A stretch of 64,000 nt of DNA from Candidatus Nanosyncoccus sp. (lineage in GTDB: Bacteria; Patescibacteriota; Saccharimonadia; Saccharimonadales; Saccharimonadaceae), in the NCBI GenBank assembly GCA_045546095.1, contig JAZQCE010000010.1, positions 5,712-69,711 on the forward strand, in the 5' to 3' direction. Both the position numbers and the translations under genes were made by a program. Under the pieces are notes generated by a model. The model did no database searches. It was not told where the DNA came from and worked only from the letters and a program-made list of their open reading frames with translations. Positions 10,432 to 59,083 of the stretch are shown one piece after another; within the stretch, counting starts at the first letter, position 1; every line of letters begins with the position of its first letter.

Positions 10432-11526
10432 GTTGGGTTGCCCAATGTCGGCAAATCCACATTGTTTAATGCTCTCACAAACGCTGGCGCCCTCGCTGCC
10501 AACTATCCTTTTGCTACCATCGAGCCAAACGTCGGCATTGTCCCGGTACCAGATGAGCGGCTAGACATCCTCGCCAAAATGTACGAGACCGACAAAATCG
10601 TCCCAGCTACTGTCGAGTTCGTCGACATTGCTGGCCTCGTCGCAGGCGCCTCAAAAGGCGAGGGGCTCGGCAATAAATTCCTTGCCCACATCCGTGAATG
10701 CCAAGCTATCTGCCATGTGGTCCGCGCCTTCAAAAACGACGACATCCTCCGTGCCGACCAAAAACTCGTCGATGATATTGTAGCGCAAGCCAAGGACGAC
10801 ATAGACATCATTAACTTAGAGCTACAGCTCGCCGACGAAGAAACCAAAGCCAAAATCGCCGCCAAACGCAAAAAAGACCCTGGGGACGAATTCATCCCCT
10901 ACCTCACCGACAAGCCCGTCATCTATATGTTCAATGTAGACGAAAAAGGCCTCACCGACAATGACCTACAACAAAAACTAACAGAAGTCGCAAGAAATGC
11001 GCAGTCGAGGGACATAAAGGCAATACTTGCCGAAGGCAATTTTGCCGCCGAAGGGGCGAAGCGAGGTGATAAAATTTCTAATTTATCACCTCGCGAAGCT
11101 CCCGAGACGTGCATTTCTTGCGACTCAAACTGTATTTTTGTTGATGCCAAACTCGAAGAGGAGATGTCCGGCATGGACCGCAATGAGCGCAAAGAGTTCT
11201 TGGAGAGTTACGGGGTAAAAGAAGATGCACTCGGCGAATTAATCAAGGCCGCCTATGACGTCCTCGGTCTCCAATCCTTCCTCACCGCCGGCAAGAAAGA
11301 ATGCCGCGCCTGGACCATCAAAAAAGGCTCTACAGCACCCCAAGCCGCCGGTACTATCCATACCGATTTTGAACGCGGTTTCATCGCTGCAAATGTCTGT
11401 AAATACGCCGACTTAGCAAGACTCGGCTCCGAGAAAGCCGTCCGCGAGGCCGGCCTCCTCCGCACCGAGGGCAAGACTTACGTCATGCAAGACGGCGACG
11501 TTGTCGAATTCCGTTTCAACGTATAA
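10411..11526 (+). CDS. ychF: Redox-regulated ATPase YchF (with in-frame hairpin insertion)
   Basis: GIVGLPNVGKST, NYPFATIEPN, FVDIAGLV, TGS domain IHTDFERGFI, YVMQDGD. Confidence 0.97.
   Translation: MNLKIGIVGLPNVGKSTLFNALTNAGALAANYPFATIEPNVGIVPVPDERLDILAKMYETDKIVPATVEFVDIAGLVAGASKGEGLGNKFLAHIRECQAICHVVRAFKNDDILRADQKLVDDIVAQAKDDIDIINLELQLADEETKAKIAAKRKKDPGDEFIPYLTDKPVIYMFNVDEKGLTDNDLQQKLTEVARNAQSRDIKAILAEGNFAAEGAKRGDKISNLSPREAPETCISCDSNCIFVDAKLEEEMSGMDRNERKEFLESYGVKEDALGELIKAAYDVLGLQSFLTAGKKECRAWTIKKGSTAPQAAGTIHTDFERGFIAANVCKYADLARLGSEKAVREAGLLRTEGKTYVMQDGDVVEFRFNV
10986..11125. repeat. Hairpin element family C, copy in ychF
   Basis: Arms AGTCGCAAGAAATGC / GCATTTCTTGCGACT; core TCGAGGGACATAAAGGCAA...GCCGAAGGGGCGAAGC shared with 36082 and 40266. 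Confidence 0.85.
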
Positions 11527-30903: not shown

Positions 30904-32769
30904 TCAGTCCCTCTTTAACATAACCGTAAAAGCTTCTGACGGAATGTCGATTTTGCCAAATCGCTTCATTCGTGCTTTACCGCGTTTTTGCTTCGCAAGT
31001 AGCTTGGCCTTGCGATCTCTATCACCTGTGTGGATTTTTACCGTCACATCTTTGCGATACGCACCAATTGTCTCCCGCGCGATAATTCTCGCCCCAATCG
31101 CCGCTTGCAGAGCCACTTCAAAATTCTGACGGGGAATTACGCCTTTCAGCTTCTTCGTCACTTCCCGGCCAATCGCATCTGCCTCACTTCTGTGTGCCAT
31201 CACCGAAAGCGCGTCCATCCGCGTCCCAGCTATTATAAAGTCCACTCTCACTAGGTCTTCAGGCCGATAACCATCTAATTCATAATTAAACGAAGCGTAT
31301 CCACTTGTCGCAGATTTTAGCTGATCATAAAAATCAGTCAACAGATTTGCCATCGGCGCTTCAAAATCAATCACCGCTCGTTCTTCTATATAGCTAAGAT
31401 TCGTCTGATGTCCTCGTTTTTCATTGATTAGATTCAGTACATTACCAATCATCGGCTTCGGTACAATTATCTCTCCCTTTACCCACGGCTCGCGAATTTC
31501 TGCGATTTCCGACACATCCGGCAAATCCGCCGCAGATTTTATCTCACGGACTTCACCGTTCGCCATCACGATTTCATAATTTGTACTCGGATTAGTCACG
31601 ATTAAATCTAATCCAAATTCTCGTTCCAGCCGCTCCTTGATAATATCCATATGGAGTAGCCCCAAAAACCCGATTCTCAGACCAAACCCGAGGATCGGCG
31701 AATTTTCCGGCTCAAATTTTAGTGCTGAATCCGACAAGCTCAATTTTTCCACCGCCTCTTTTAAATCTTTGTATTGATCGTTTGATACAGGGAAAAACCC
31801 TGCATACACAAACGGCAATACATTCTTGTATCCGGGCAGTGGTGTGTCAGCTGGTTTTTTTACCAACGTCACCGTATCACCCACCTTCGCCTCGCTAGTT
31901 GTTTTTAGATTGGTCACAATATAGCCAATCTCTCCCGCAGATAGTCGCTCTCTTGGCGTCATCTTTGGTGTCAAAATCCCGACTTCCAATGCTAACCCCT
32001 TCGTCTCTGCTGCCATCATCCGAATCTCTGCCCCCTTAGGGATCTCTCCGTCAAACACCCTCACATATAGCACCACCCCCCGATAATCGTCAAAATATGA
32101 ATCAAAGATCAACGCTCTAGTGGTCACAGCAGGCCCAACACCATCTTTTCTCGGGCTGCGTTCTCGACCCCTGTCGCCACAGGGGTCGAGCCGCTCATCC
32201 TCGCCTTGCCAGGCTCCGGAGGCCCTTCGAAAAGAGGTGCTTGGGCCTGCCGCCACTACCGCATCTAATATTTGCTCCACATTTTTACCCGTCTTACCGG
32301 AGACTTCTATAATGTCAGATCGTTTGCACCCGAGCAGATTCATAATCTGCGCCGCTACTGATTCGGTATCTGCCGCCGGCAAATCAATTTTGTTTATCAC
32401 CGGAATAATTGTGAGGTCTTGTTCTAATGCCAGATACACATTCGCGAGCGTCTGCGCCTGAATCCCCTGCGTGGCATCCACCACCAGTACCGCCGACTCC
32501 ACCGCCTGCAATGACCGACTCACCTCATAGCTAAAATCCACGTGTCCTGGCGTATCGATTAAATTCAGAGTATACCCTTTCCACTGCATCGTTACCGGAG
32601 CCAGTTTAATCGTAATCCCTTTCTCACGTTCTAGCTCCATTGAATCTAGCAGCTGCGATTGCATCTCACGTTTGCTCACCGTCCCCGTGAGCTCCATCAT
32701 CCGGTCCGCAATCGTACTTTTCCCGTGATCAATGTGTGCAATGATACAAAAATTCCGAATCTTTTCCAT
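30904..32769 (-). CDS. lepA: Translation elongation factor 4 (with in-frame hairpin insertion)
   Basis: IRNFCIIAHIDHGKST, LIDTPGHVDF, GFLGLLHMDI, IPRQNFEVALQA. Confidence 0.97.
   Translation of the reverse strand: MEKIRNFCIIAHIDHGKSTIADRMMELTGTVSKREMQSQLLDSMELEREKGITIKLAPVTMQWKGYTLNLIDTPGHVDFSYEVSRSLQAVESAVLVVDATQGIQAQTLANVYLALEQDLTIIPVINKIDLPAADTESVAAQIMNLLGCKRSDIIEVSGKTGKNVEQILDAVVAAGPSTSFRRASGAWQGEDERLDPCGDRGRERSPRKDGVGPAVTTRALIFDSYFDDYRGVVLYVRVFDGEIPKGAEIRMMAAETKGLALEVGILTPKMTPRERLSAGEIGYIVTNLKTTSEAKVGDTVTLVKKPADTPLPGYKNVLPFVYAGFFPVSNDQYKDLKEAVEKLSLSDSALKFEPENSPILGFGLRIGFLGLLHMDIIKERLEREFGLDLIVTNPSTNYEIVMANGEVREIKSAADLPDVSEIAEIREPWVKGEIIVPKPMIGNVLNLINEKRGHQTNLSYIEERAVIDFEAPMANLLTDFYDQLKSATSGYASFNYELDGYRPEDLVRVDFIIAGTRMDALSVMAHRSEADAIGREVTKKLKGVIPRQNFEVALQAAIGARIIARETIGAYRKDVTVKIHTGDRDRKAKLLAKQKRGKARMKRFGKIDIPSEAFTVMLKRD
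32129..32250. repeat. Hairpin element family B, copy in lepA
   Basis: Arms GCAGGCCCAACACCATCTTTTC / GAAAAGAGGTGCTTGGGCCTGC; core aligns with 57364-57482. Confidence 0.85.
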
Positions 32770-33861: not shown

Positions 33862-36033
33862 TTAGTTTACACCTTTCATTGTTAAACTAAGTTTACCATG
33901 ATCGAGCGCAATTAGCTTCACTTTCACCACGTCACCCACGTGTAGTACCTCGTCTACCGACTTTAGCCGCTTATCACTGATCTGCGAAATGTGAAGCATT
34001 CCATCGGTCCCTGGCAATATCTCTACAAACGCTCCAAAATCTTTAATCGACACCACCTTACCTTCATAGACTTTACCTACCTCTGGCTCCTCGGTCAGCG
34101 ACTTCACCCATTCTAGAGCTTTCTTTATCTTTTCTGGGTCCTTGCCCGAAATCGTCACGAGCCCCGTATCCTCAATATCTACCTCAGCACCAGTCTCGGT
34201 AGTAATTTTGTTAATCATTTCACCACCTTTACCAATCACGGCACCAATCTTGTCTGGATTAATCATTAATTTCTCAATCTGGGGTGCATATTTGGAAATT
34301 TCTTTTCTCGGCTCTGCGATTACTTTCTTGATATGATCTAGAATAAACATCCGCCCAGCATGACTTTGCTTCAAAGCTTTTTCCATTATTTCTACTGGCA
34401 GCCCATGCACCTTCATATCCATCTGAAGCGCTGTAATTCCCTGATCTGTACCCGTCACCTTGAAATCCATATCTCCAGCAAAATCCTCTGCATCCATCAA
34501 ATCGGTTAGCACATAAGCCTTATCTATATCATCTACGGTAATGTCAGCACCCTTTGGCACATCCACCATCAGCCCCATAGCAACACCACTCACCGGCCGC
34601 GCCAAAGGCACACCTGCATCCATCAAAGCCATGCACGATGAACAAGTCGCCGCCATCGAGGTGGAGCCGTTCTGCGACATTATCTCAGTCACACTGCGGA
34701 TGGCGTATGGAAAGTCTTCTTCGCTCGGGAGCACCGGAATTAGTGCTCGCTCTGCCAAGTATCCATGCCCGATTTCGCGTCGCCCCGGCGACCCCATTCG
34801 ACCCGGCTCACCTACAGTATATGGCGGTGCATTATAATGATGCATATAGCGCCGTTTACCGTCGGTCACCTCCATTGTATCTACATCCTGCGAATAGGAT
34901 AGTGGTGCCAGCGTCACAATGTTCATCGCCTGCGTCACGCCACGAGTAAACAGCGATGACCCATGTGTCCTCGGCAAAATCCCTACCTGGGAGGATAGCG
35001 GCCTCACTTCGTCTAGCTTCCTACCATCCGGACGTACACCCTCCTCCACGATTCCGCGCCGCACCTCCTTGTGCACCGCCAGCTCAAAAGCCTGATCATA
35101 TACGTCCCGCAAATTCTCGTCATACCATTCTACTTTTTCATTATCAGTCTCACCTTTACCATGAGTCAAAGCAAACTCATCGTGCATTGCGTATTTAATA
35201 TCGTCTAGGATATGCGCTCTTTCCATCACATTGCCACGCACCTTTGAGCCAAACTTCCCAGCCGTCCATTCAGCCACTTCTTTTGTCACTTCTTCATCCG
35301 GCAGTACCAGCTCATATTCTTGCCTTGGCGCAGCTACTTGCTTTGCTAGCTCCCTTTGCAAATCTAGCACCGGCTGCACCTTGTCTACGGCCCAGTGCAT
35401 CGCCTCGATAATCATATCCTCTGGCACTTCATTCGCGCCAGCCTCCACCATTACTACTTTACCATCTTTACAAGCCACTACGAGGTCTAGCGGAGATTTC
35501 TCACGCTCTTCGGGGCCGAGGAATCCCTTAAAATCGCCCCCAATTCTGCCAATTCTAATCCCAGCAATTGGCCCATCAAACGGCACGCCTGCGTTCATCA
35601 GCGCCGCCGAGGCCGCAATCATCGCCACACAATCTGGCCGAAAAGCCGGATCTAGTGACAATACCGTACACACCACTTGCACCTCTTGCCGATATCCCTT
35701 CGGGAAAAGTGGCCGAATCGGCCGATCTATCAACCGCCCCACTAGCACAGCTTCATCAGCCGGCTTGCCTTCCCGCTTTATAAACCTAGAACCACTAATT
35801 TTGCCTGCAGCATAAAATTTCTCCTCATATCCAATAGATAAAGGGAAGAAATCTTGCACCACCGGTTTGGTCCCCACGACCACCGACCCTAGCACCACGG
35901 TATCCCCATAGGTCACTAGCACCGAGGATGTCGCACGAAACCCAACCCTATTCACCTCTAACGTCAGCTCACGTCCTAACCACTCCGTAGAAAGCCTCAC
36001 CGTCTTTTTACCATTAGGGTTAATAATGTCCAT
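33862..36033 (-). CDS. pnp: Polyribonucleotide nucleotidyltransferase
   Basis: RFIKREG, LIDRPIRPLF, GHGYLAERAL, DMDFKV, KH and S1 domains; start moved to ATG 36033. Confidence 0.97.
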   Translation of the reverse strand: MDIINPNGKKTVRLSTEWLGRELTLEVNRVGFRATSSVLVTYGDTVVLGSVVVGTKPVVQDFFPLSIGYEEKFYAAGKISGSRFIKREGKPADEAVLVGRLIDRPIRPLFPKGYRQEVQVVCTVLSLDPAFRPDCVAMIAASAALMNAGVPFDGPIAGIRIGRIGGDFKGFLGPEEREKSPLDLVVACKDGKVVMVEAGANEVPEDMIIEAMHWAVDKVQPVLDLQRELAKQVAAPRQEYELVLPDEEVTKEVAEWTAGKFGSKVRGNVMERAHILDDIKYAMHDEFALTHGKGETDNEKVEWYDENLRDVYDQAFELAVHKEVRRGIVEEGVRPDGRKLDEVRPLSSQVGILPRTHGSSLFTRGVTQAMNIVTLAPLSYSQDVDTMEVTDGKRRYMHHYNAPPYTVGEPGRMGSPGRREIGHGYLAERALIPVLPSEEDFPYAIRSVTEIMSQNGSTSMAATCSSCMALMDAGVPLARPVSGVAMGLMVDVPKGADITVDDIDKAYVLTDLMDAEDFAGDMDFKVTGTDQGITALQMDMKVHGLPVEIMEKALKQSHAGRMFILDHIKKVIAEPRKEISKYAPQIEKLMINPDKIGAVIGKGGEMINKITTETGAEVDIEDTGLVTISGKDPEKIKKALEWVKSLTEEPEVGKVYEGKVVSIKDFGAFVEILPGTDGMLHISQISDKRLKSVDEVLHVGDVVKVKLIALDHGKLSLTMKGVN

Positions 36034-36081
36034 AAAAATTATCCTTTCTGGGAAAACCTCAGATATTGTTAGCCAAACACT

Positions 36082-36213
36082 AGTAATTGCTAAAACATAA
36101 CGTCGAGGGACATAAAGACAAAATCTCTGATTTTGTCGCCGAAGGGGCAAAGCTTTTGTGTAAATTTATTATCACATCGCGGAGCTCCCAAGACGTATGT
36201 TTTAGCAATTACT
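36082..36213. repeat. Hairpin element family C, copy upstream of pnp
   Basis: Arms AGTAATTGCTAAAACATA(A)CGTC / GACGTATGTTTTAGCAATTACT; family C core. Confidence 0.85.
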
Positions 36214-39127: not shown

Positions 39128-40252
39128 CTACAAAATCTTCTGGAGCTCAGCCTTGTACGCCTCTACCCCCGGCTGGTCAAACGGATTCACGCCAAACAGC
39201 TTAGCGCTCATCGCACAGGAAAGCTCAAAGAAATAAATCAACTCACCAAACCCTATCTCGTCATAGCTTGCCACGCCAAGCGAAAGTACCGGTATCCCAC
39301 CAGCGGCGTGAGCGGTTTTTACCGCCTGCACCACTTTGGCATTCATTTCGTCCGTAGGATAATCGATGATGGTCTCCCATAGGTTTCGCCGCCCGTCCTG
39401 CATAAACTGCCCCAACGAATGCAAATCCGTAGAATAAATCACCGACGCCGGCAGTACACCCTGCCGATTCTTTCCCTCGGACTCGCCAAACAATTGCTTC
39501 AGCCATTCATTAAAATACGCCGTAGACGGTTCAAAACTAGCAAAGACTTCCGTATCGTACCCTTTCTGCCCTAGCTCATATCGCATCCAGGCATACTTCG
39601 TAGCTGGCTCCACCGTAGATTCCACCGCTCCAGCTGCTCCCTCGAGCAGCTTGTCTACATTCACGCCTGCAACCGCCATTGGCAAAAGCCCCACCGCCGA
39701 AAGCACTGAATACCGCCCACCAATATTATCTGGCACCACAAGCATCGTGTATCCTGCCGCTACCGCTTCGTCGTGCAAAGCACCCTGTTTCTTATCTGTG
39801 GTAGCATAAATCCGACTTGCCGCTTCCTCTTCGCCGTATTTTTCGATTAATTTTTTCTTAAATTCACCAAAAGCAATCGCCGGCTCCAGGGTAGTCCCAG
39901 ATTTCGAAATCACATTCACGGAGAAGTCATGATCCCCCACCTTTTCTAGTGCCCGCTCGAGCTCCCGTCTAGAAAGCGAATTCCCTGCATAGATTATTTT
40001 CGTCTCCGATTTGGGATGTAATGCCTCAATGACCGCCCGATGCCCCAAGTACGACCCCCCGATTCCAATACACACCAAATATTCACTCTCTTCCTGTATT
40101 TTCTTCGCAGCCTCCTTAATCCGCACGAACTCACCCATATCAAATTTCTTCGGCAAAGCAAACCACCCGCCCATCTTATCGCGAGCAATTTCCTTTAGTA
40201 TCTCCGCAGTTTTTACTTCATCTATTTGTGGACTAAAATTCACTGTTATCAT
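39128..40252 (-). CDS. pgi: Glucose-6-phosphate isomerase (short form)
   Basis: IGIGGSYLG, SKSGTTLE, IGGRYSVLS, QLFGESEGK, NPFDQPGVEAYK; start taken at ATG 40252 after TATAAT. Confidence 0.95.
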   Translation of the reverse strand: MITVNFSPQIDEVKTAEILKEIARDKMGGWFALPKKFDMGEFVRIKEAAKKIQEESEYLVCIGIGGSYLGHRAVIEALHPKSETKIIYAGNSLSRRELERALEKVGDHDFSVNVISKSGTTLEPAIAFGEFKKKLIEKYGEEEAASRIYATTDKKQGALHDEAVAAGYTMLVVPDNIGGRYSVLSAVGLLPMAVAGVNVDKLLEGAAGAVESTVEPATKYAWMRYELGQKGYDTEVFASFEPSTAYFNEWLKQLFGESEGKNRQGVLPASVIYSTDLHSLGQFMQDGRRNLWETIIDYPTDEMNAKVVQAVKTAHAAGGIPVLSLGVASYDEIGFGELIYFFELSCAMSAKLFGVNPFDQPGVEAYKAELQKIL

Positions 40253-40265
40253 AACGTTATTATAC

Positions 40266-40405
40266 AAGACTTGCGCAAAATCGTAAAATCGAGGAACATA
40301 AAGGCAAAATCTCAGATTTTGCCGCCGAAGGGGCGAAGCTTTTGTGTAAAATTTCTAATTTACACAAAAGCGAAGCTTCCGAGGTTTACGATTTGCGCAA
40401 GTCTT
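40266..40405. repeat. Hairpin element family C, between the pgi and tRNA-Leu promoters
   Basis: Arms AAGACTTGCGCAAA(A)TCGTAAA / TTTACGATTTGCGCAAGTCTT; family C core. Confidence 0.85.
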
Positions 40406-40659: not shown

Positions 40660-43092
40660 TTATTTCAGAGCCTTTATTACCGCATCGCGATCATTTTTTA
40701 TCAACCTGAGCCTCGCGGCGATTTCTTTTTCGCCAATTTCTATCGCTCGAGCCAGAGCTGGCTCATCTTTCATCGGCAAGAAGAAATCCTTCCACGCCTC
40801 AAATTCGCTCTCCGTCCTGATAATATTAGCAGTGTACCGCGGGTACGCATCCAACGACTTATCCCCCATGACTTTCCTCAAGGACTCCCAATTCTTTACC
40901 AGCCACCGCCATGTCATCTCTCGTGACTTTGAATTCCTAAACAACCTTACAAACAGATAAATCTGATCCTGCAACTTCACAATCTCTTTTTTATCGAGCA
41001 ACCCCACTGCCTTTTTTAATACTTTCTCATCCTTCGTTAGCGTCACCGCTATACGCAGGTCTGCCTTAATCTCTGGATCGGCAATCTGCTGATATGCCCG
41101 GATATACTCATCAAACACCGAGCCATCCAAATAAATTTTAGCGTCCAAAATATCGGCTCGTATTTCCGAATCCAAGCTCTCGTAATTTCTGTCGTACATC
41201 TCTGCCAGTTTTTGCAAATTTTCGGTGTCTTCCGCATAGAAATCCAGCCCAAGCAGTATCGCCCGAAGACGCAAGGTATTTTCATCATCACCATCTCGCG
41301 TCGTCAAGCCAATTTCCGAAAGTTTCGGCTGCACCAAGTTCCCCACAAACTCTTTCAGTTTCTTTTCTTCTTCCGACCCAGGCTCCACGAAAATCTTTAG
41401 TTGCCCAATAATTACCGCCACGATTTCCCACACCGACGCACTATCCTCATCCTTAAACTTCTCTACCAAAGGCAATAGCGATGCCGAATCAGCCAGCTTC
41501 GTCCGCGCCGTGAGAGACCTATCAATTAAAAGTCTCAGTTTTTCTTCCAGCCCCAGCTTATCAAAATTCCGAAGCCGCTCTTCAAATTCAGCCTCACTCA
41601 AATTCAATACATAGTGCCCACTCATATCCTCTGTCACTTCCGGCACCATCCATTCCGTCTCCGGCATTTCAGGCGAATCCAGCAAAAACCGCTTCTGTGT
41701 GTATTTCTCAAATTCATCATCACCCGTAATCACCGGATACCCCGGCTTGTCAATAAACCCGTGCATTAGCTCACCCACATCAAACTCCGCATACTCCGAC
41801 AAAGCATTCCACAGGTCATCACCGACCGTATTTTTATATTTATATTTTTCAAAATATTTTCGTAAGCCTTTACAAAATTCATCCCAGCCCATCAAGCGAA
41901 TTAGCATCAGCATCAAATGTGCTCCTTTAGAATACACAATCGCACCATCAAATAATGTCGCTATCTCCGCCGGGTCATGTACCTCCTGATGCACCGACTG
42001 CACATCTGTATAAGCATCCCGCACCAAGGCCGAGAAACAATCACCCGTGAAAAAACCTTCCCAAATCTTAAACTCAGGATATGCATAATCAGACGCAAAA
42101 TATTCCATCACGCTGGCAAACGACTCATTTAACCACAAGTCATCCCACCATTCCATTGTCACGAGATCCCCAAACCACTGATGCGACAACTCATGTGCTA
42201 CCGTAAGCGAAACCGATTTTTTCGTCTCTATTGTCGCACTTTTGCCCACCAACATCATTGATTCCCGATAGGTCACCAGCCCCCAGTTCTCCATCGCTCC
42301 TGCCTCAAAATCCGGCAACGCTATCTGGTCTAATTTCTCCAGAGGATAAGGCACTCCAAAATTATCGTCATAAAACTCTAGCGACTTTGCCGCAATCTCA
42401 TTAGCAAAATCCACCGAATCCACATCCTGCGCCAACGAACAATAAGTTGTAATCTTCGTCCCATGCGCATTAGTCACACTCTTGCCATGAAATTTCCCAA
42501 TCACCCATGCCAGCAGATAAGTGCTCATTCGTGGCGTCGGCTGAAAAGTTTTTGAAAAAGCGCCATCGAGGACCGTAAGCTCGGCCGAACGGCCTCGAGT
42601 GTGTCCGAGATGGTGCTTTTCAAAAACTTCAGGTGTGTTGGCGATAATCAAGTCGTCTTTGTCTGGCGTTGTGATCGATAGCTCAAACACCGCTTTGGCC
42701 GCGGGCTCGTCGATACACGGGAAAGCCTCGCAAGCATAATGGCTTTCAAATTGCGTCGCCACTATCGTCTCCGTATGCCCCTCGTATTCATAAGTAGAAA
42801 GATACGCCCCCTGCATATTTTCATTCAAAGTGCCATTATAATCTATGGTTATTTCTCTTTCCCCAAGTGGTACCTTGCGGATCTCCAAGACCCCCCCGTC
42901 TGTCACGAACTCAGATTCCTTACCATCGACCAACACCCCATCAATCTTTAGACCCACCGCATGGAATTTCACCGTCTCCACCATGGCCTCACCAGTCACA
43001 GTCACCATTCCGCCAATCGTCTTGGTCTCTTTATCAATAAACAAATCAAGCGTATATTTTTCCGGTTTAAAATAATCAAGTAATCTCTCCAT
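40660..43092 (-). CDS. pepN: M1 family aminopeptidase N (with in-frame hairpin insertion)
   Basis: ATQFE, AFPCIDEP, GAMENWG, HELSHQWFG..LWLNESF. Confidence 0.95.
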   Translation of the reverse strand: MERLLDYFKPEKYTLDLFIDKETKTIGGMVTVTGEAMVETVKFHAVGLKIDGVLVDGKESEFVTDGGVLEIRKVPLGEREITIDYNGTLNENMQGAYLSTYEYEGHTETIVATQFESHYACEAFPCIDEPAAKAVFELSITTPDKDDLIIANTPEVFEKHHLGHTRGRSAELTVLDGAFSKTFQPTPRMSTYLLAWVIGKFHGKSVTNAHGTKITTYCSLAQDVDSVDFANEIAAKSLEFYDDNFGVPYPLEKLDQIALPDFEAGAMENWGLVTYRESMMLVGKSATIETKKSVSLTVAHELSHQWFGDLVTMEWWDDLWLNESFASVMEYFASDYAYPEFKIWEGFFTGDCFSALVRDAYTDVQSVHQEVHDPAEIATLFDGAIVYSKGAHLMLMLIRLMGWDEFCKGLRKYFEKYKYKNTVGDDLWNALSEYAEFDVGELMHGFIDKPGYPVITGDDEFEKYTQKRFLLDSPEMPETEWMVPEVTEDMSGHYVLNLSEAEFEERLRNFDKLGLEEKLRLLIDRSLTARTKLADSASLLPLVEKFKDEDSASVWEIVAVIIGQLKIFVEPGSEEEKKLKEFVGNLVQPKLSEIGLTTRDGDDENTLRLRAILLGLDFYAEDTENLQKLAEMYDRNYESLDSEIRADILDAKIYLDGSVFDEYIRAYQQIADPEIKADLRIAVTLTKDEKVLKKAVGLLDKKEIVKLQDQIYLFVRLFRNSKSREMTWRWLVKNWESLRKVMGDKSLDAYPRYTANIIRTESEFEAWKDFFLPMKDEPALARAIEIGEKEIAARLRLIKNDRDAVIKALK
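42541..42632. repeat. Hairpin element family A, copy in pepN
   Basis: Core GGACCGTAAGCTCGGCCGAACGGCCTCGAGTGTGTCC (42570-42606) with copy-specific arms. Confidence 0.85.
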
Positions 43093-45140: not shown

Positions 45141-45216
45141 CTGGGTGTGGCGCAGTTGGTAGCGCGCGACTTTTGGGAAGTCGAGGCCGCTGGTTCAAGT
45201 CCAGTCACCCAGACCA
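45141..45216 (+). tRNA. tRNA-Pro(TGG)
   Basis: Cloverleaf, anticodon loop TTTGGGA, CCA end. Confidence 0.95.
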
Positions 45217-45227
45217 TTTTTATATCC

Positions 45228-45304
45228 CTGGGATTGGCGCAGCCTGGTAGCGCGCGGCATTCGGGATGCCGAGGTCAGGAGTTCAAATCTCCTATCCCAG
45301 ACCA
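45228..45304 (+). tRNA. tRNA-Pro(CGG)
   Basis: Cloverleaf, anticodon loop TTCGGGA, CCA end. Confidence 0.95.
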
Positions 45305-45308
45305 CGCT

Positions 45309-45385
45309 CGGGGCTTGGCGCAGCCTGGTAGCGCGCACGCATGGGGTGCGTGAGGTCAGGAGTTCAAATCTCCTAGCCCCGACCA
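45309..45385 (+). tRNA. tRNA-Pro(GGG)
   Basis: Cloverleaf, anticodon loop ATGGGGT, CCA end. Confidence 0.95.
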
Positions 45386-48056: not shown

Positions 48057-50246
48057 TCACTCAAACACCGGCAAATCGTCCGGAAACGGGTCAAAATCCG
48101 ACTCCCCAAAATCATCAGCAAAATCCGTAAACCCATCGCCGTCACGATCACGATACCCCGCCGAGCCAGCCCCCATCCCGTACGGATCATACCCGAGCTC
48201 CATCAAAAACCTAGACGGCATATTATAATTCCTATCACCAAACGAAAACCGACTCGCCGCATAAGTCAAAAACAACTTCCGCATCGCCCGCGTCATCCCT
48301 ACATATGCTAGCCTCCGCTCTTCTTCTAGCTCCGCCGGATCATCTATGCACCTTGAACTCGGAAACAGCCCCTCTTCCATCCCTACAATAAACACTACTG
48401 GAAATTCCAACCCCTTTGCAGCATGCAGCGTCATTAAGGTCACAGAATTCGCCTCACTGCTCTCATCCACCGACGACATCAAAGTCGCATCCGCCAAAAA
48501 CTCCTCCAGCGTGTCATATTCAGCCGCATTCGTCGCTAGTACATCCAAGTTCCGCATCCGCTCTTCTGCCGCCGGTGTTCCATCATCCGTCAATGTCTTG
48601 AAGTCAAAATACTCTACAATTCGCCTTACGATTTCGCCCGAGTTTTCTACAGCTTTTAAATCAACCGGATCGGTCCTATTCGGGACCGTAAGCTTGGCCG
48701 AGCGGCCCTTGAGCGTGTCCCGAGTAGGACCATCCGGTTGATTTTGTATCCCCCTGATAAACCCAGTCAACTTCCTCAAAGCATTTTTCGCCTTAGCAGA
48801 ATTCAATACCTCCAGCAGATCCGCATCCAGCAGCGGGTTCTCACCCTTCATCACGTCCATTGCAGACAAAATCTTGTTTAGTGACACCTCACCAATCCCT
48901 GAAAGCACATTAGATACCACACGCGCCAGACTAACCGTATCTCGCTGATTTTGAATCACCTTTAATATCGCCAGCACGTCCTTCACTTCCTTGCGATCAT
49001 AGAATCTCACCCCGCCCACAATTTTATATGGTATATGCATCCCCATAAACGCTTTTTCAAAATTATACGACTGTGCATTCGTCCGATAAAGCACCGCAAA
49101 ATCACTAAAATCCGGATATTTCTTTTGCAAATTCAGGATTGTGAGCGCCACATAATTCGCTTCCTGCGCTTCATCACGCAGATTCTCAATATCCACCGGC
49201 TCACCATCCTCTATCTCCGTAAATAGAGTTTTTTCGGTCCGGGTTTTATTTTGATTAATGATTTTCTGCGAAGCCCGCAAAATATTCCCCGTAGAACGAT
49301 AGTTCTGCTCCAACTTGATTACCTTAGCCCCCGGAAAATCCTTTTCAAAATTCAAAATATTCGTAAAATCCGCTCCCCGCCATGAATAAATAGACTGCCA
49401 ATCGTCCCCCACCACACAAATATTTCGTTTTTCATTTACCAAAAGTTTTACAATATTATATTGCACGACATTAGTATCTTGATATTCATCAATCAGGATA
49501 TGTTTGAATCTTTTCTGCCATTTTTTTCTCACCTCAGAATGTTTTTGCAGCAGTTCTAATTCTTTCAAAAGCAAATCGTCAAAATCCAGCGCCCCTGCCT
49601 TTTCTTTTTCTACTTCATATTTCGCAAAAATTTTGGCAATTTTTTGTTGGTTTGGATAAATCGCTTTCGCCGCGTAGTCATCCGGCCCATTCCCCTGATT
49701 CTTTTCACTCGAGATAATCGACTGAATCGATTTTGGTTTCAAGTTTTTATTATCTGTAAACTTCAAATCTTTAATAATTCGCCGAATTAGCGATACCTGG
49801 TCGTCCATGTCATAAATCACAAAATTCCGATCCAGCCCTGCCGCATCCGCCTCAATTCGGAGTATCCGCACCGCAATACCGTGGAACGTCCCCATATAAG
49901 GCATGAAGCTACGGGGCGGCTCTTGGGGATTTGCGGGCAATTCCAAAAACGCTTCACTCGGGACCGTAAGCTCGGCCGAACGGCCTTGAGTGTGTCCCGA
50001 GTGAAGTGTTTTAGAATTGCCCACCAACCGCCACAGCCTCCCCCGCATCTCTCTCGCCGCCTTATTAGTAAACGTCACTGCGAGGATATCCGACGGCCGC
50101 ACACCATGAGCAATCAGATTAGCAATGCGGTGTGTTAAAGTTTTCGTTTTCCCAGATCCAGCTCCCGCCAATATCAACACTGGCCCCGTTAGGCACTCTA
50201 CCGCCTCCTTTTGCCGCGGATTCAATCCCTCCAAAATTTCATTCAT
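48057..50246 (-). CDS. pcrA: ATP-dependent DNA helicase PcrA/UvrD (two in-frame hairpin insertions)
   Basis: LAGAGSGKT, TFTNKAA, IDEYQD, QNYRST, TLHAAKGLEF, EERRLAYVGMTRA. Confidence 0.97.
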   Translation of the reverse strand: MNEILEGLNPRQKEAVECLTGPVLILAGAGSGKTKTLTHRIANLIAHGVRPSDILAVTFTNKAAREMRGRLWRLVGNSKTLHSGHTQGRSAELTVPSEAFLELPANPQEPPRSFMPYMGTFHGIAVRILRIEADAAGLDRNFVIYDMDDQVSLIRRIIKDLKFTDNKNLKPKSIQSIISSEKNQGNGPDDYAAKAIYPNQQKIAKIFAKYEVEKEKAGALDFDDLLLKELELLQKHSEVRKKWQKRFKHILIDEYQDTNVVQYNIVKLLVNEKRNICVVGDDWQSIYSWRGADFTNILNFEKDFPGAKVIKLEQNYRSTGNILRASQKIINQNKTRTEKTLFTEIEDGEPVDIENLRDEAQEANYVALTILNLQKKYPDFSDFAVLYRTNAQSYNFEKAFMGMHIPYKIVGGVRFYDRKEVKDVLAILKVIQNQRDTVSLARVVSNVLSGIGEVSLNKILSAMDVMKGENPLLDADLLEVLNSAKAKNALRKLTGFIRGIQNQPDGPTRDTLKGRSAKLTVPNRTDPVDLKAVENSGEIVRRIVEYFDFKTLTDDGTPAAEERMRNLDVLATNAAEYDTLEEFLADATLMSSVDESSEANSVTLMTLHAAKGLEFPVVFIVGMEEGLFPSSRCIDDPAELEEERRLAYVGMTRAMRKLFLTYAASRFSFGDRNYNMPSRFLMELGYDPYGMGAGSAGYRDRDGDGFTDFADDFGESDFDPFPDDLPVFE
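48657..48745. repeat. Hairpin element family A, pcrA copy 2
   Basis: Arms AAATCAACCGGAT(C)GGTCCTATTCGGGAC / GTCCCGAGTAGGACCATCCGGTTGATTT. Confidence 0.85.
49935..50022. repeat. Hairpin element family A, pcrA copy 1
   Basis: Arms GGGCAATTCCAAAAACGCTTCACTCGGGAC / GTCCCGAGTGAAGTGTTTTAGAATTGCCC. Confidence 0.85.
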
Positions 50247-52296: not shown

Positions 52297-52453
52297 AACA
52301 CAAATAGCATGTTTTTCGGGACCGTAAGCTTGGCCCGACCGTCGAAGGAGACGAGACTGCAGAAAGTTCACTTTCTGCAGCGAGCCGACGCTCAACGGGC
52401 GACTCAAAGAGTCGAGCGGCCTTGAGCGTGTCCCGAAAAACATCCATTTGTGT
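52297..52453. repeat. Hairpin element family A, long form, between divergent murA and pgk
   Basis: Same termini as the short copies plus an internal segment of about 75 bp; arms AACACAAATAGCATGTTTTTCGGGAC / GTCCCGAAAAACATCCATTTGTGTT. Confidence 0.85.

Positions 52454-55862: not shown

Positions 55863-55863
<1 letters not shown>
55775..55863 (+). repeat. 45-bp-period tandem duplication abutting the ligA stop
   Basis: TTTACGAAGTAAAATTCTTGCTCCCGCGTGAA(A/G)CAAACTCCCGC at 55775-55818 and 55820-55863. Confidence 0.9.

Positions 55864-59083
<3,220 letters not shown>

Follow-up and report, generated by a model that had tools for sequence, protein, structure and literature searches.

Structured palindromic inserts in lepA and ligA of a Candidatus Nanosyncoccus genome: probable copies of a genus-specific DNA repeat

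Introduction

Rickettsia palindromic elements (RPEs; Ogata et al. 2000) are presented, in the summary given in PMC10969869, as families that each encode a conserved peptide. Repetitive extragenic palindromes (REPs) tagged with CGTC occur without a dedicated transposase (Di Nocera et al. 2013, PMC3733652). Here we analyze two palindromic inserts of about 120 nt, one in lepA and one in ligA, found in a stretch of 64,000 nucleotides from Candidatus Nanosyncoccus sp. (GenBank assembly GCA_045546095.1, contig JAZQCE010000010.1, positions 5,712 to 69,711 of the forward strand; hereafter the window). Coordinates without a prefix are window positions, those with a prefix such as C6 refer to contigs of the host genome, and G numbers denote genomes of the same genus.

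Saccharibacteria genomes are among the smallest and most streamlined known. Our favored explanation, to which we assign a probability of roughly 0.6, sees in both inserts copies of a GC-rich, non-autonomous DNA palindrome that resembles RPEs and the REP-derived REPINs and is specific to one genus of gut and rumen Saccharibacteria. We refer to this family as family B and to the subfamily of both inserts as B1.

Results

The lepA and ligA inserts are homologous and share one predicted fold

The gene lepA, encoding EF4, was recognized as an open reading frame (ORF) with its translation (30904..32769, minus strand, 621 aa). Its insert is a palindrome of 122 bases on the plus strand, antisense to lepA and in the orientation of our covariance model, which begins with GCAGGCCCAAC at 32129 and finishes with GGGCCTGC at 32250 (match of model R1, 104 bits at 32123-32263). 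The 5' arm of the outer stem (GCAGGCCCAACACCATCTTTTCTCGGG, 32129..32155) pairs with the 3' arm (CCCTTCGAAAAGAGGTGCTTGGGCCTGC, 32223..32250), leaving two conserved 1-nt bulges. Within this stem lie two plus-strand hairpins. P2 (32157..32195) has a stem formed by 32163-32173 and 32180-32190 (CTCGACCCCTG/CAGGGGTCGAG) and the apical sequence TCGCCA at 32174-32179, that is, a CGCC tetraloop closed by a T-A pair. P3 (32199..32219) consists of GCCT-TGCC-AGGC at 32203-32214 between the conserved flanks CTC and TCCGGA; its stem covaries, being GCCT/AGGC in some copies and GCGC/GCGC in others. Folded as single-stranded DNA, the lepA element reached z-scores of -8.9 and -8.6 for the two strands relative to shuffled sequences, none of 200 shuffles being as good. 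The insert is in frame and reads ...GPSTSF...SPRKDGVGP.... A phmmer comparison of LepA with E. coli EF4 (3CB4) was broken into residues 1-174 and 209-618; hence the extra residues stand in for the 6-residue linker of domains I-II in the E. coli protein.

The sister copy lies in ligA, encoding NAD-dependent DNA ligase (55863..57971, minus strand, 702 aa). The element occupies 57364..57482 on the plus strand, antisense to ligA, and matches the covariance model with 115.7 bits. Its P2 hairpin at 57397-57423 is GCCGTCACCCG-TCGCCA-CGGGGACGGC, the TCGCCA being located at 57408-57413. As folded DNA it gave z-scores of -6.9 and -7.6 for the two strands, again with 0 of 200 shuffles as good. This insert, too, is in frame (...RSTSF...RPEKDGAGL...) and falls in the nucleotidyltransferase domain, immediately ahead of the point at which the alignment to the PDB structure restarts, query residue 204, corresponding to residue 167 of E. 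coli LigA (2OWO). For both strands of both copies an identical three-way junction was predicted, composed of a long outer stem, a hairpin tipped by TCGCCA and a small second hairpin.

A sequence-only reading of the window had proposed that the two inserts are homologous, and this holds: its coordinates were exact, and the inserts, about 120 nt each, align end to end. It had further described compensatory pairs around an invariant TCGCCA loop. Some four inner-stem pairs are indeed changed on both sides, but the loop is invariant within the subfamily only. A shared in-frame peptide, STSF...KDG, had also been noted. Both inserts are in frame as stated, but the likeness of the peptides is encoded by the outer arms only, and 1-nt indels put the cores of the two copies into different frames.

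Family B is a covarying three-way junction

Family members in the host genome (832 kb, 27 contigs) were collected by BLAST and iterated nhmmer. This yielded 42 nhmmer matches, or about 36 loci after composite copies were merged; 33 matches lie within long open frames and nine (seven loci) are intergenic. On closer inspection two of the 33, C25:19875 and C25:21070, are located upstream of the true start codon, giving about 27 intragenic and nine intergenic loci. The nine matches outside long ORFs occupy spacers between genes that are adjacent to each other in the related genome G002. No gene of the host genome is split by a copy; rather, the palindromes keep the frame of the unrelated ORFs in which they recur, among them lepA, ligA, obg and apparent aminoacyl-tRNA synthetase genes, and they fall in protein loops and linkers.

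The common architecture comprises an outer stem of 20-30 bp, interrupted by two 1-nt bulges that are conserved, the junction CGG(G/A)..GCG, hairpins P2 and P3, and a closing motif CTCGAA. The P2 tetraloop is CGYY, appearing as TCGCCA in B1 and as TCGTCA, TCGTTA or CCGTCG in sister subfamilies. Covariation was assessed in two sets, 35 copies from 17 genomes of the genus (set 1) and 41 copies from other metagenome-assembled genomes (MAGs; set 2), each against 500 shuffles. TCGCCA was the commonest P2 loop in both (18 of 35 and 23 of 41 copies). In set 1, 94.7% of the alignment cells formed standard pairs, compared with 69.1% in the shuffles, and 30 of 34 pairs had changed on both sides; the corresponding values for set 2 were 93.4%, 70.5% and 27 of 34. 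These levels were reached by 0 of 500 shuffles in either set, and sliding the 3' partners by 1-3 columns reduced pairing to 36-59%. Thus, covariation is strong in two independent sets, and the structure that had been proposed from the lepA and ligA copies stands.

The consensus of 37 B1 copies from other genomes and MAGs was ..CGCGTC..CC.gTCGCCAcgGG..GCGCT...CTCGC..TGCC..GCTCCG.A. Near-invariant across these copies are the unpaired bases and the feet of the hairpins, including CTCGC..TGCC..GCTCCG. The outer arms are essentially unconserved (mean top-base frequency 0.45) and pair in 82-93% of cells.

The family is confined to one genus and its cores are better conserved than the host genes

With a covariance model derived from 13 copies, the family was detected in 17 of the 19 genomes of the genus, the copy number per genome ranging from 0 to at least 34, and 12 other genera of the order gave no match. 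G002 and G018 are free of copies and G008 carries one. When 185,579 species genomes were scanned with a 19-mer and the matches passed to the covariance model, true matches came solely from Saccharibacteria/Nanosyncoccus MAGs; the records bearing the element are assigned to Candidatus Nanosyncoccus or Saccharibacteria and stem from sheep, goat, buffalo, yak, roe deer and other gut samples. Carriage by phages was considered and rejected, since of eight viral contigs sharing a 19-mer none matched the covariance model. A scan of both strands of the lepA element against Rfam 15 returned no family, the sole match (12.7 bits, E = 6.4) being at chance level, and full-text literature searches found no description of such elements in Saccharibacteria.

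Many insertion sites are old or hot: of about 33 copies in other MAGs, 15 are at sites that are also occupied in the host genome, and a sheep-gut MAG carries an element at the same site of ligA. Whole palindromes are present in some species and absent in others, and both the LepA linker and the LigA loop hold different palindromes in different species. In four of 14 same-site comparisons between species the element was flipped. Two lepA genes from different metagenomes, L250 (P0009) and L251 (P0072), have the same length (1851 nt) and the same site of insertion, with the element in opposite orientations. Apart from a few hundred bases around the element (nt ~300-660), the two genes are about 99% identical; the stretch of lower identity holds the flipped element and continues upstream of it. 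The drop in identity just upstream of the element suggests import of the allele by homologous recombination. A single origin of the lepA copy on the LepA tree was not supported: at least two changes are forced and nine are most parsimonious, on a weak tree with evident recombination. The obg-like gene (C22:12888-14408) carries two family B copies at the same two sites as in G011.

Resident copies at the same site, of the same subfamily and in the same orientation, were then compared with their host genes. The lepA core is 98% identical to that of its ortholog L081, the whole gene 77%. Identities of core and flank were 0.89 and 0.76 for ligA (with L140, the copy of the sheep-gut MAG), 0.97 and 0.71 for C21:58231 (L179), 0.92 and 0.67 for C22:130045 (L132), and 0.90 and 0.73 for C6:2664 (L191). 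The outer arms in these pairs are wholly replaced in sequence and still paired. Core identity above that of the flanks points either to purifying selection acting on the copies in place or to their repeated renewal from active ones. The arms would change at the neutral rate subject to the need to pair, the flanks would be held by protein function, and the unpaired core would be held by something that reads nucleotides. Exchange of the core as a cassette with a fixed boundary was rejected, the limit of high identity differing between the lepA and ligA ortholog pairs.

These data bear on the main rival explanation, which we regard as rather unlikely: a domesticated, host-beneficial DNA site whose folded or duplex core is bound by a host protein for nucleoid organisation, control of replication or repair, recombination or DNA uptake, as proposed for REPs and the related BIMEs and in the "mutualist" view of REPINs. 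It would account for cores that are better conserved than the surrounding coding sequence, for junction and loop bases that are near-invariant in 37 copies from many MAGs, for the many sites common to several species and for a constraint that is symmetric between strands. However, the copy-free genomes and the single copy in G008 indicate that the element is dispensable, copy number varies widely, and identical cores at unrelated loci (described below) indicate recent copying. Moreover, a binding site would hardly be expected within coding regions, and no candidate binding protein was identified.

Constraint acts on the nucleic acid, probably as DNA

As the sequence-only reading had inferred, the constraint is on the nucleic acid and not on the peptide. 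The 24 intragenic copies whose frame could be anchored use all six frames (9, 7 and 1 antisense to the model; 3, 1 and 3 sense), and lepA and ligA differ in the frame of the core. Every intragenic copy preserves the frame of its host, and across copies 63% of the six frames are free of stop codons, compared with 30% (sd ~3%) in composition-matched shuffles. What is kept is the Watson-Crick foldability of either DNA strand together with the unpaired bases of junction and loops.

About 92-93% of the pairs are Watson-Crick. On the model strand, GT/TG combinations numbered 17 against 22 AC/CA in set 1 and 17 against 27 in set 2; in the outer arms read in mRNA sense, 18 G:T faced 17 A:C. Selection on a single RNA strand would give an excess of G:U, so the absence of a G:T excess over A:C argues against RNA. 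Preservation of the frame and depletion of stop codons likewise argue against excision at the RNA level or ribosomal bypass, neither of which would need them. The selected fold is therefore probably DNA rather than RNA. A comparison of element orientation with local GC skew was uninformative.

A functional RNA structure in the mRNA, be it a ribozyme, a fold regulating in cis, or an intervening sequence that is intron-like or bypassed, thus seems improbable, even though covariation combined with conserved unpaired bases is what classically marks a structured RNA, the predicted folds are very stable, and orientation relative to the host gene is biased (17 against 7 anchored copies, or 26 against 7 with nine nested pieces included). 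Apart from the pairing statistics and the lack of an Rfam match, it must contend with intergenic copies and with both orientations inside genes, even at the same site of near-identical lepA genes. The RNA level that the sequence-only reading implied, a structured mRNA or a spliced lepA transcript, is accordingly not supported: pairs are almost all Watson-Crick, both orientations occur, copies flip in situ, no gene is split or frame-shifted, and stops have been purged.

Empty sites lack both arms, and identical cores point to recent copying

The 88-nt core of the lepA copy recurs without a change in an intergenic copy at C25:19865, and several compensated substitutions separate the arms of the two copies. 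Such identity of cores at unrelated loci points to recent copying. The whole genome of G002 was taken as a copy-free reference, allowing 15 comparisons of filled with empty sites. At most sites the whole palindrome is missing from G002, both arms included, as is the element from its ligA; neither arm is thus host sequence. The notion that host DNA supplies one arm and an inverted duplication of the target the other was rejected as a general rule on the same grounds. At some loci pairing runs on briefly into host codons. No target-site duplication was visible in the 15 comparisons, in which the flanks are only about 75% identical. The lepA gene of G002 (L006) has a short hairpin at the same linker, with the feet TTCTCGG and CCGAGAG and no core, which may be a remnant after loss of the core.

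Local generation of palindromes, by template switching or hairpin-primed synthesis at fragile loops, would not require a mobile family at all. Its appeal lies in the locus-specific outer arms, which often reach into host codons, in the different palindromes that occupy the same LepA and LigA loops in different species, and in the first copy of the obg-like gene, around C22:13900-14000, beside which one arm and about 11 nt of host flank are tandemly duplicated and the peptide DGYSR(V/A)LLAD occurs twice. Such a process cannot yield identical 88-nt cores at unrelated loci or one core consensus in dozens of MAGs, and the empty sites of G002 lack both arms. As the sole origin it is refuted and very improbable; it may contribute to the turnover of the arms. 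Least credible of all, and largely refuted by frame usage, is a module acting at the protein level, a peptide of about 40 aa (STSF...KDG) adding a function to LepA, LigA and other proteins, which would fit the similar peptides of the lepA and ligA arms and the first description of RPEs as encoding conserved peptides (as summarised in PMC10969869), but not a single nucleotide family read in six frames with differing core frames in lepA and ligA, stems of orthologous copies that keep nucleotides and not residues, or intergenic copies that are equally conserved.

Other modules are nested in the hairpin apex

Six composite loci carry a further module of 72-76 nt in the middle of the P2 tetraloop (C6:17369-17595, C6:16809-17035, C21:42855-43081, C27:22083-22307, C3:3090-3319 and C3:39694-39923). 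They involve two host subfamilies and two module types. The composite junction reads CCCGTCG, module, TCGTCACGGG, so that the module is flanked by GTCG and GTC(T)G, and both types of module have GTCGAC at the left junction. Extra bases in the P2 loop are also seen in some copies from other MAGs.

A second family of palindromes in the window, family A, has the core TCGGGACCGTAAGCTYGGCCGARCGGCCTTGAGYGTGTCCCGA and long, locus-specific outer stems (42555-42609, 48680-48723, 49931-50027 and 52316-52436). Its copies are in frame within the ORFs 40660..43092 (once) and 48057..50246 (twice). In the composite copy at 52316-52436 the inner GGCC-GARC-GGCC loop is broken by about 80 nt akin to the nested module of family B. 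Since the modules are nested exactly in loops, hairpin apices appear to be preferred insertion points. This nesting offers the best, if indirect, support for the earlier suggestion that the invariant loop could be a protein recognition site.

Search for a mobilising enzyme

The domain PF01797, characteristic of REP-associated tyrosine transposases (RAYTs) and IS200/IS605-type Y1 HUH transposases, is absent from all 21 genomes of the genus searched, whereas control genomes gave matches. The mobilising enzyme is hence not a RAYT or an IS200-type Y1 transposase. Genes present in the host genome and absent from G002 include a reverse transcriptase (RVT_1), a phage integrase, a prophage and restriction-modification genes. 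The reverse transcriptase (C24:16974-19144) has the motifs IGNLTSQ and YVDD, from which we take it to belong to the type found in diversity-generating retroelements; it adjoins an ORF resembling a helix-turn-helix protein and occurs in 16 of 21 genomes of the genus. It was rejected as the mobiliser, being missing from G011 (23 copies) and G012 (16 copies).

Further observations in the window and the host genome

A direct repeat of 79 nt, 86% identical, occurs at 36089-36167 and 40275-40353 (also at 11039-11062), contains ATTTTGCCGCCGAAGGGGCGAAGC and overlaps the 5' ends of the ORFs 33862..36150 and 39128..40267, for which it may be a common leader or promoter. At 45157-45385 lie three tRNA-like units in tandem, each about 60 nt long and at a spacing of 81-88 nt, which are probably a tRNA gene cluster. 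In the host genome, the 1.5-kb contig C17 encodes a gag-pre-integrase / rve / Pol_BBD protein of the Ty1-copia type and is probably plant (feed) contamination of the bin. Contig C8 consists of N letters only.

Discussion

Each copy consists of an outer stem of arbitrary sequence closing a conserved three-way junction with two hairpins. If the inserts are copies of a mobile palindromic repeat, those within genes would be translated as tolerated loop insertions of about 40 aa, and the stop-free, in-frame copies seen today would be those that survived selection. The fold would act as DNA, as a single-strand hairpin or a cruciform, and be recognised by a trans-acting protein through the conserved unpaired bases. 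The hairpin apex, with GTCG-containing loops such as TCGCCA, would be the point at which this machinery cuts or inserts, as other modules are nested exactly there.

Several points weigh against this explanation. No insertion event was caught in the act, and for primary insertions we could define neither a target-site duplication nor fixed ends. No enzyme that would mobilise the family was found; the RAYT-type domain is lacking throughout the genus genomes searched, and the absence of the sole reverse transcriptase from the copy-rich G011 and G012 leaves it without a link to copy number. That the inserts are translated is itself an inference. Finally, identity between orthologous sites is 89-98% for the unpaired core and 67-77% for the coding flanks, which is unexpected for decaying selfish DNA.

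A more far-reaching possibility, which we consider doubtful, is a new kind of mobile or maintained DNA made of "Russian-doll" palindromes that are defined by structure. In such elements only the unpaired bases of the three-way junction would be constrained in sequence, a structure-specific enzyme other than a RAYT would both insert the elements at hairpin apices and place further insertions in their own apices, and copies would be actively kept intact in essential genes, with cores conserved above the genes, arms free to change as long as they pair, and inversion tolerated. Were this true, the family would represent a DNA-level analogue of conserved functional RNA, or an addictive element.

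Whichever holds, one genus of Saccharibacteria tolerates dozens of 120-140-bp palindromes within essential genes despite its streamlining. By presenting the same DNA in six frames, the family separates constraint on nucleic acid from constraint on protein. Its textbook covariation, in a structure that looks like DNA, calls for caution in covariation-based RNA discovery. Furthermore, the elements inflate and diversify protein loops in uncultivated bacteria, which bears on annotation and structure prediction. The family also points to a structure-specific DNA-handling activity aimed at the apices of hairpins, in a lineage that lacks RAYTs. Should the core turn out to be under selection at resident sites, the picture of selfish repeats inherited from RPEs would need to change.

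Among described systems RPEs, as summarised in PMC10969869, are similar in being palindromes of about 100-150 bp in a reduced, host-dependent genome, present in dozens of copies, many of them in frame in unrelated housekeeping genes that stay intact, and without a transposase of their own. That source gives RPE families one conserved peptide each, whereas the Saccharibacteria elements are read in six frames. They differ further in the conserved internal three-way junction with invariant loops and unconserved arms, in the nesting of modules in hairpin loops and in the flipping of copies in place. The phylum here is Patescibacteria, and the two are set side by side by description, not by sequence.

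REPs and REPINs likewise are hairpins that are kept as structures, form pairs folding into larger stem-loops, occur in some ORFs, especially of replication and repair genes, and persist for long at orthologous sites (PMC3733652). The CGTC-tagged REPs share with the Saccharibacteria elements the lack of a dedicated transposase. However, REPs are single hairpins of 20-40 bp with an unpaired GTAG or CGTC tag, whereas family B copies are three-way junctions of about 120-140 nt with variable ends, in which no terminal tag is conserved. GTAG REPs moreover rely on RAYTs, and no Y1/RAYT gene is present in the 21 genomes of the genus.

Miniature inverted-repeat transposable elements (Correia, ERIC, Nezha and others) are also small, non-autonomous, multi-copy and structured, and can form in-frame fusions. 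They are defined by the conserved terminal inverted repeats and target-site duplications of a parent insertion sequence; here the termini are the least conserved part, and no parent insertion sequence was found for family B. Integron attC sites offer an analogy of principle only: imperfect palindromes free in sequence, of which the folded single strand and a few extrahelical or unpaired bases are conserved and read by a recombinase. In contrast to attC sites, which lie between cassettes beside an integrase, family B copies are found inside genes or in short spacers between housekeeping genes; no integron context was seen, integrase and R/L box motifs not having been searched for.

In yeast mitochondria, the "byp" elements derived from GC clusters are skipped by the ribosome. 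The GC clusters resemble family B as GC-rich hairpin modules that spread in a compact, AT-richer genome and land in coding sequence. They are much shorter, and whereas byp elements are bypassed, the Saccharibacteria elements are in frame and stop-free, which argues for their translation.

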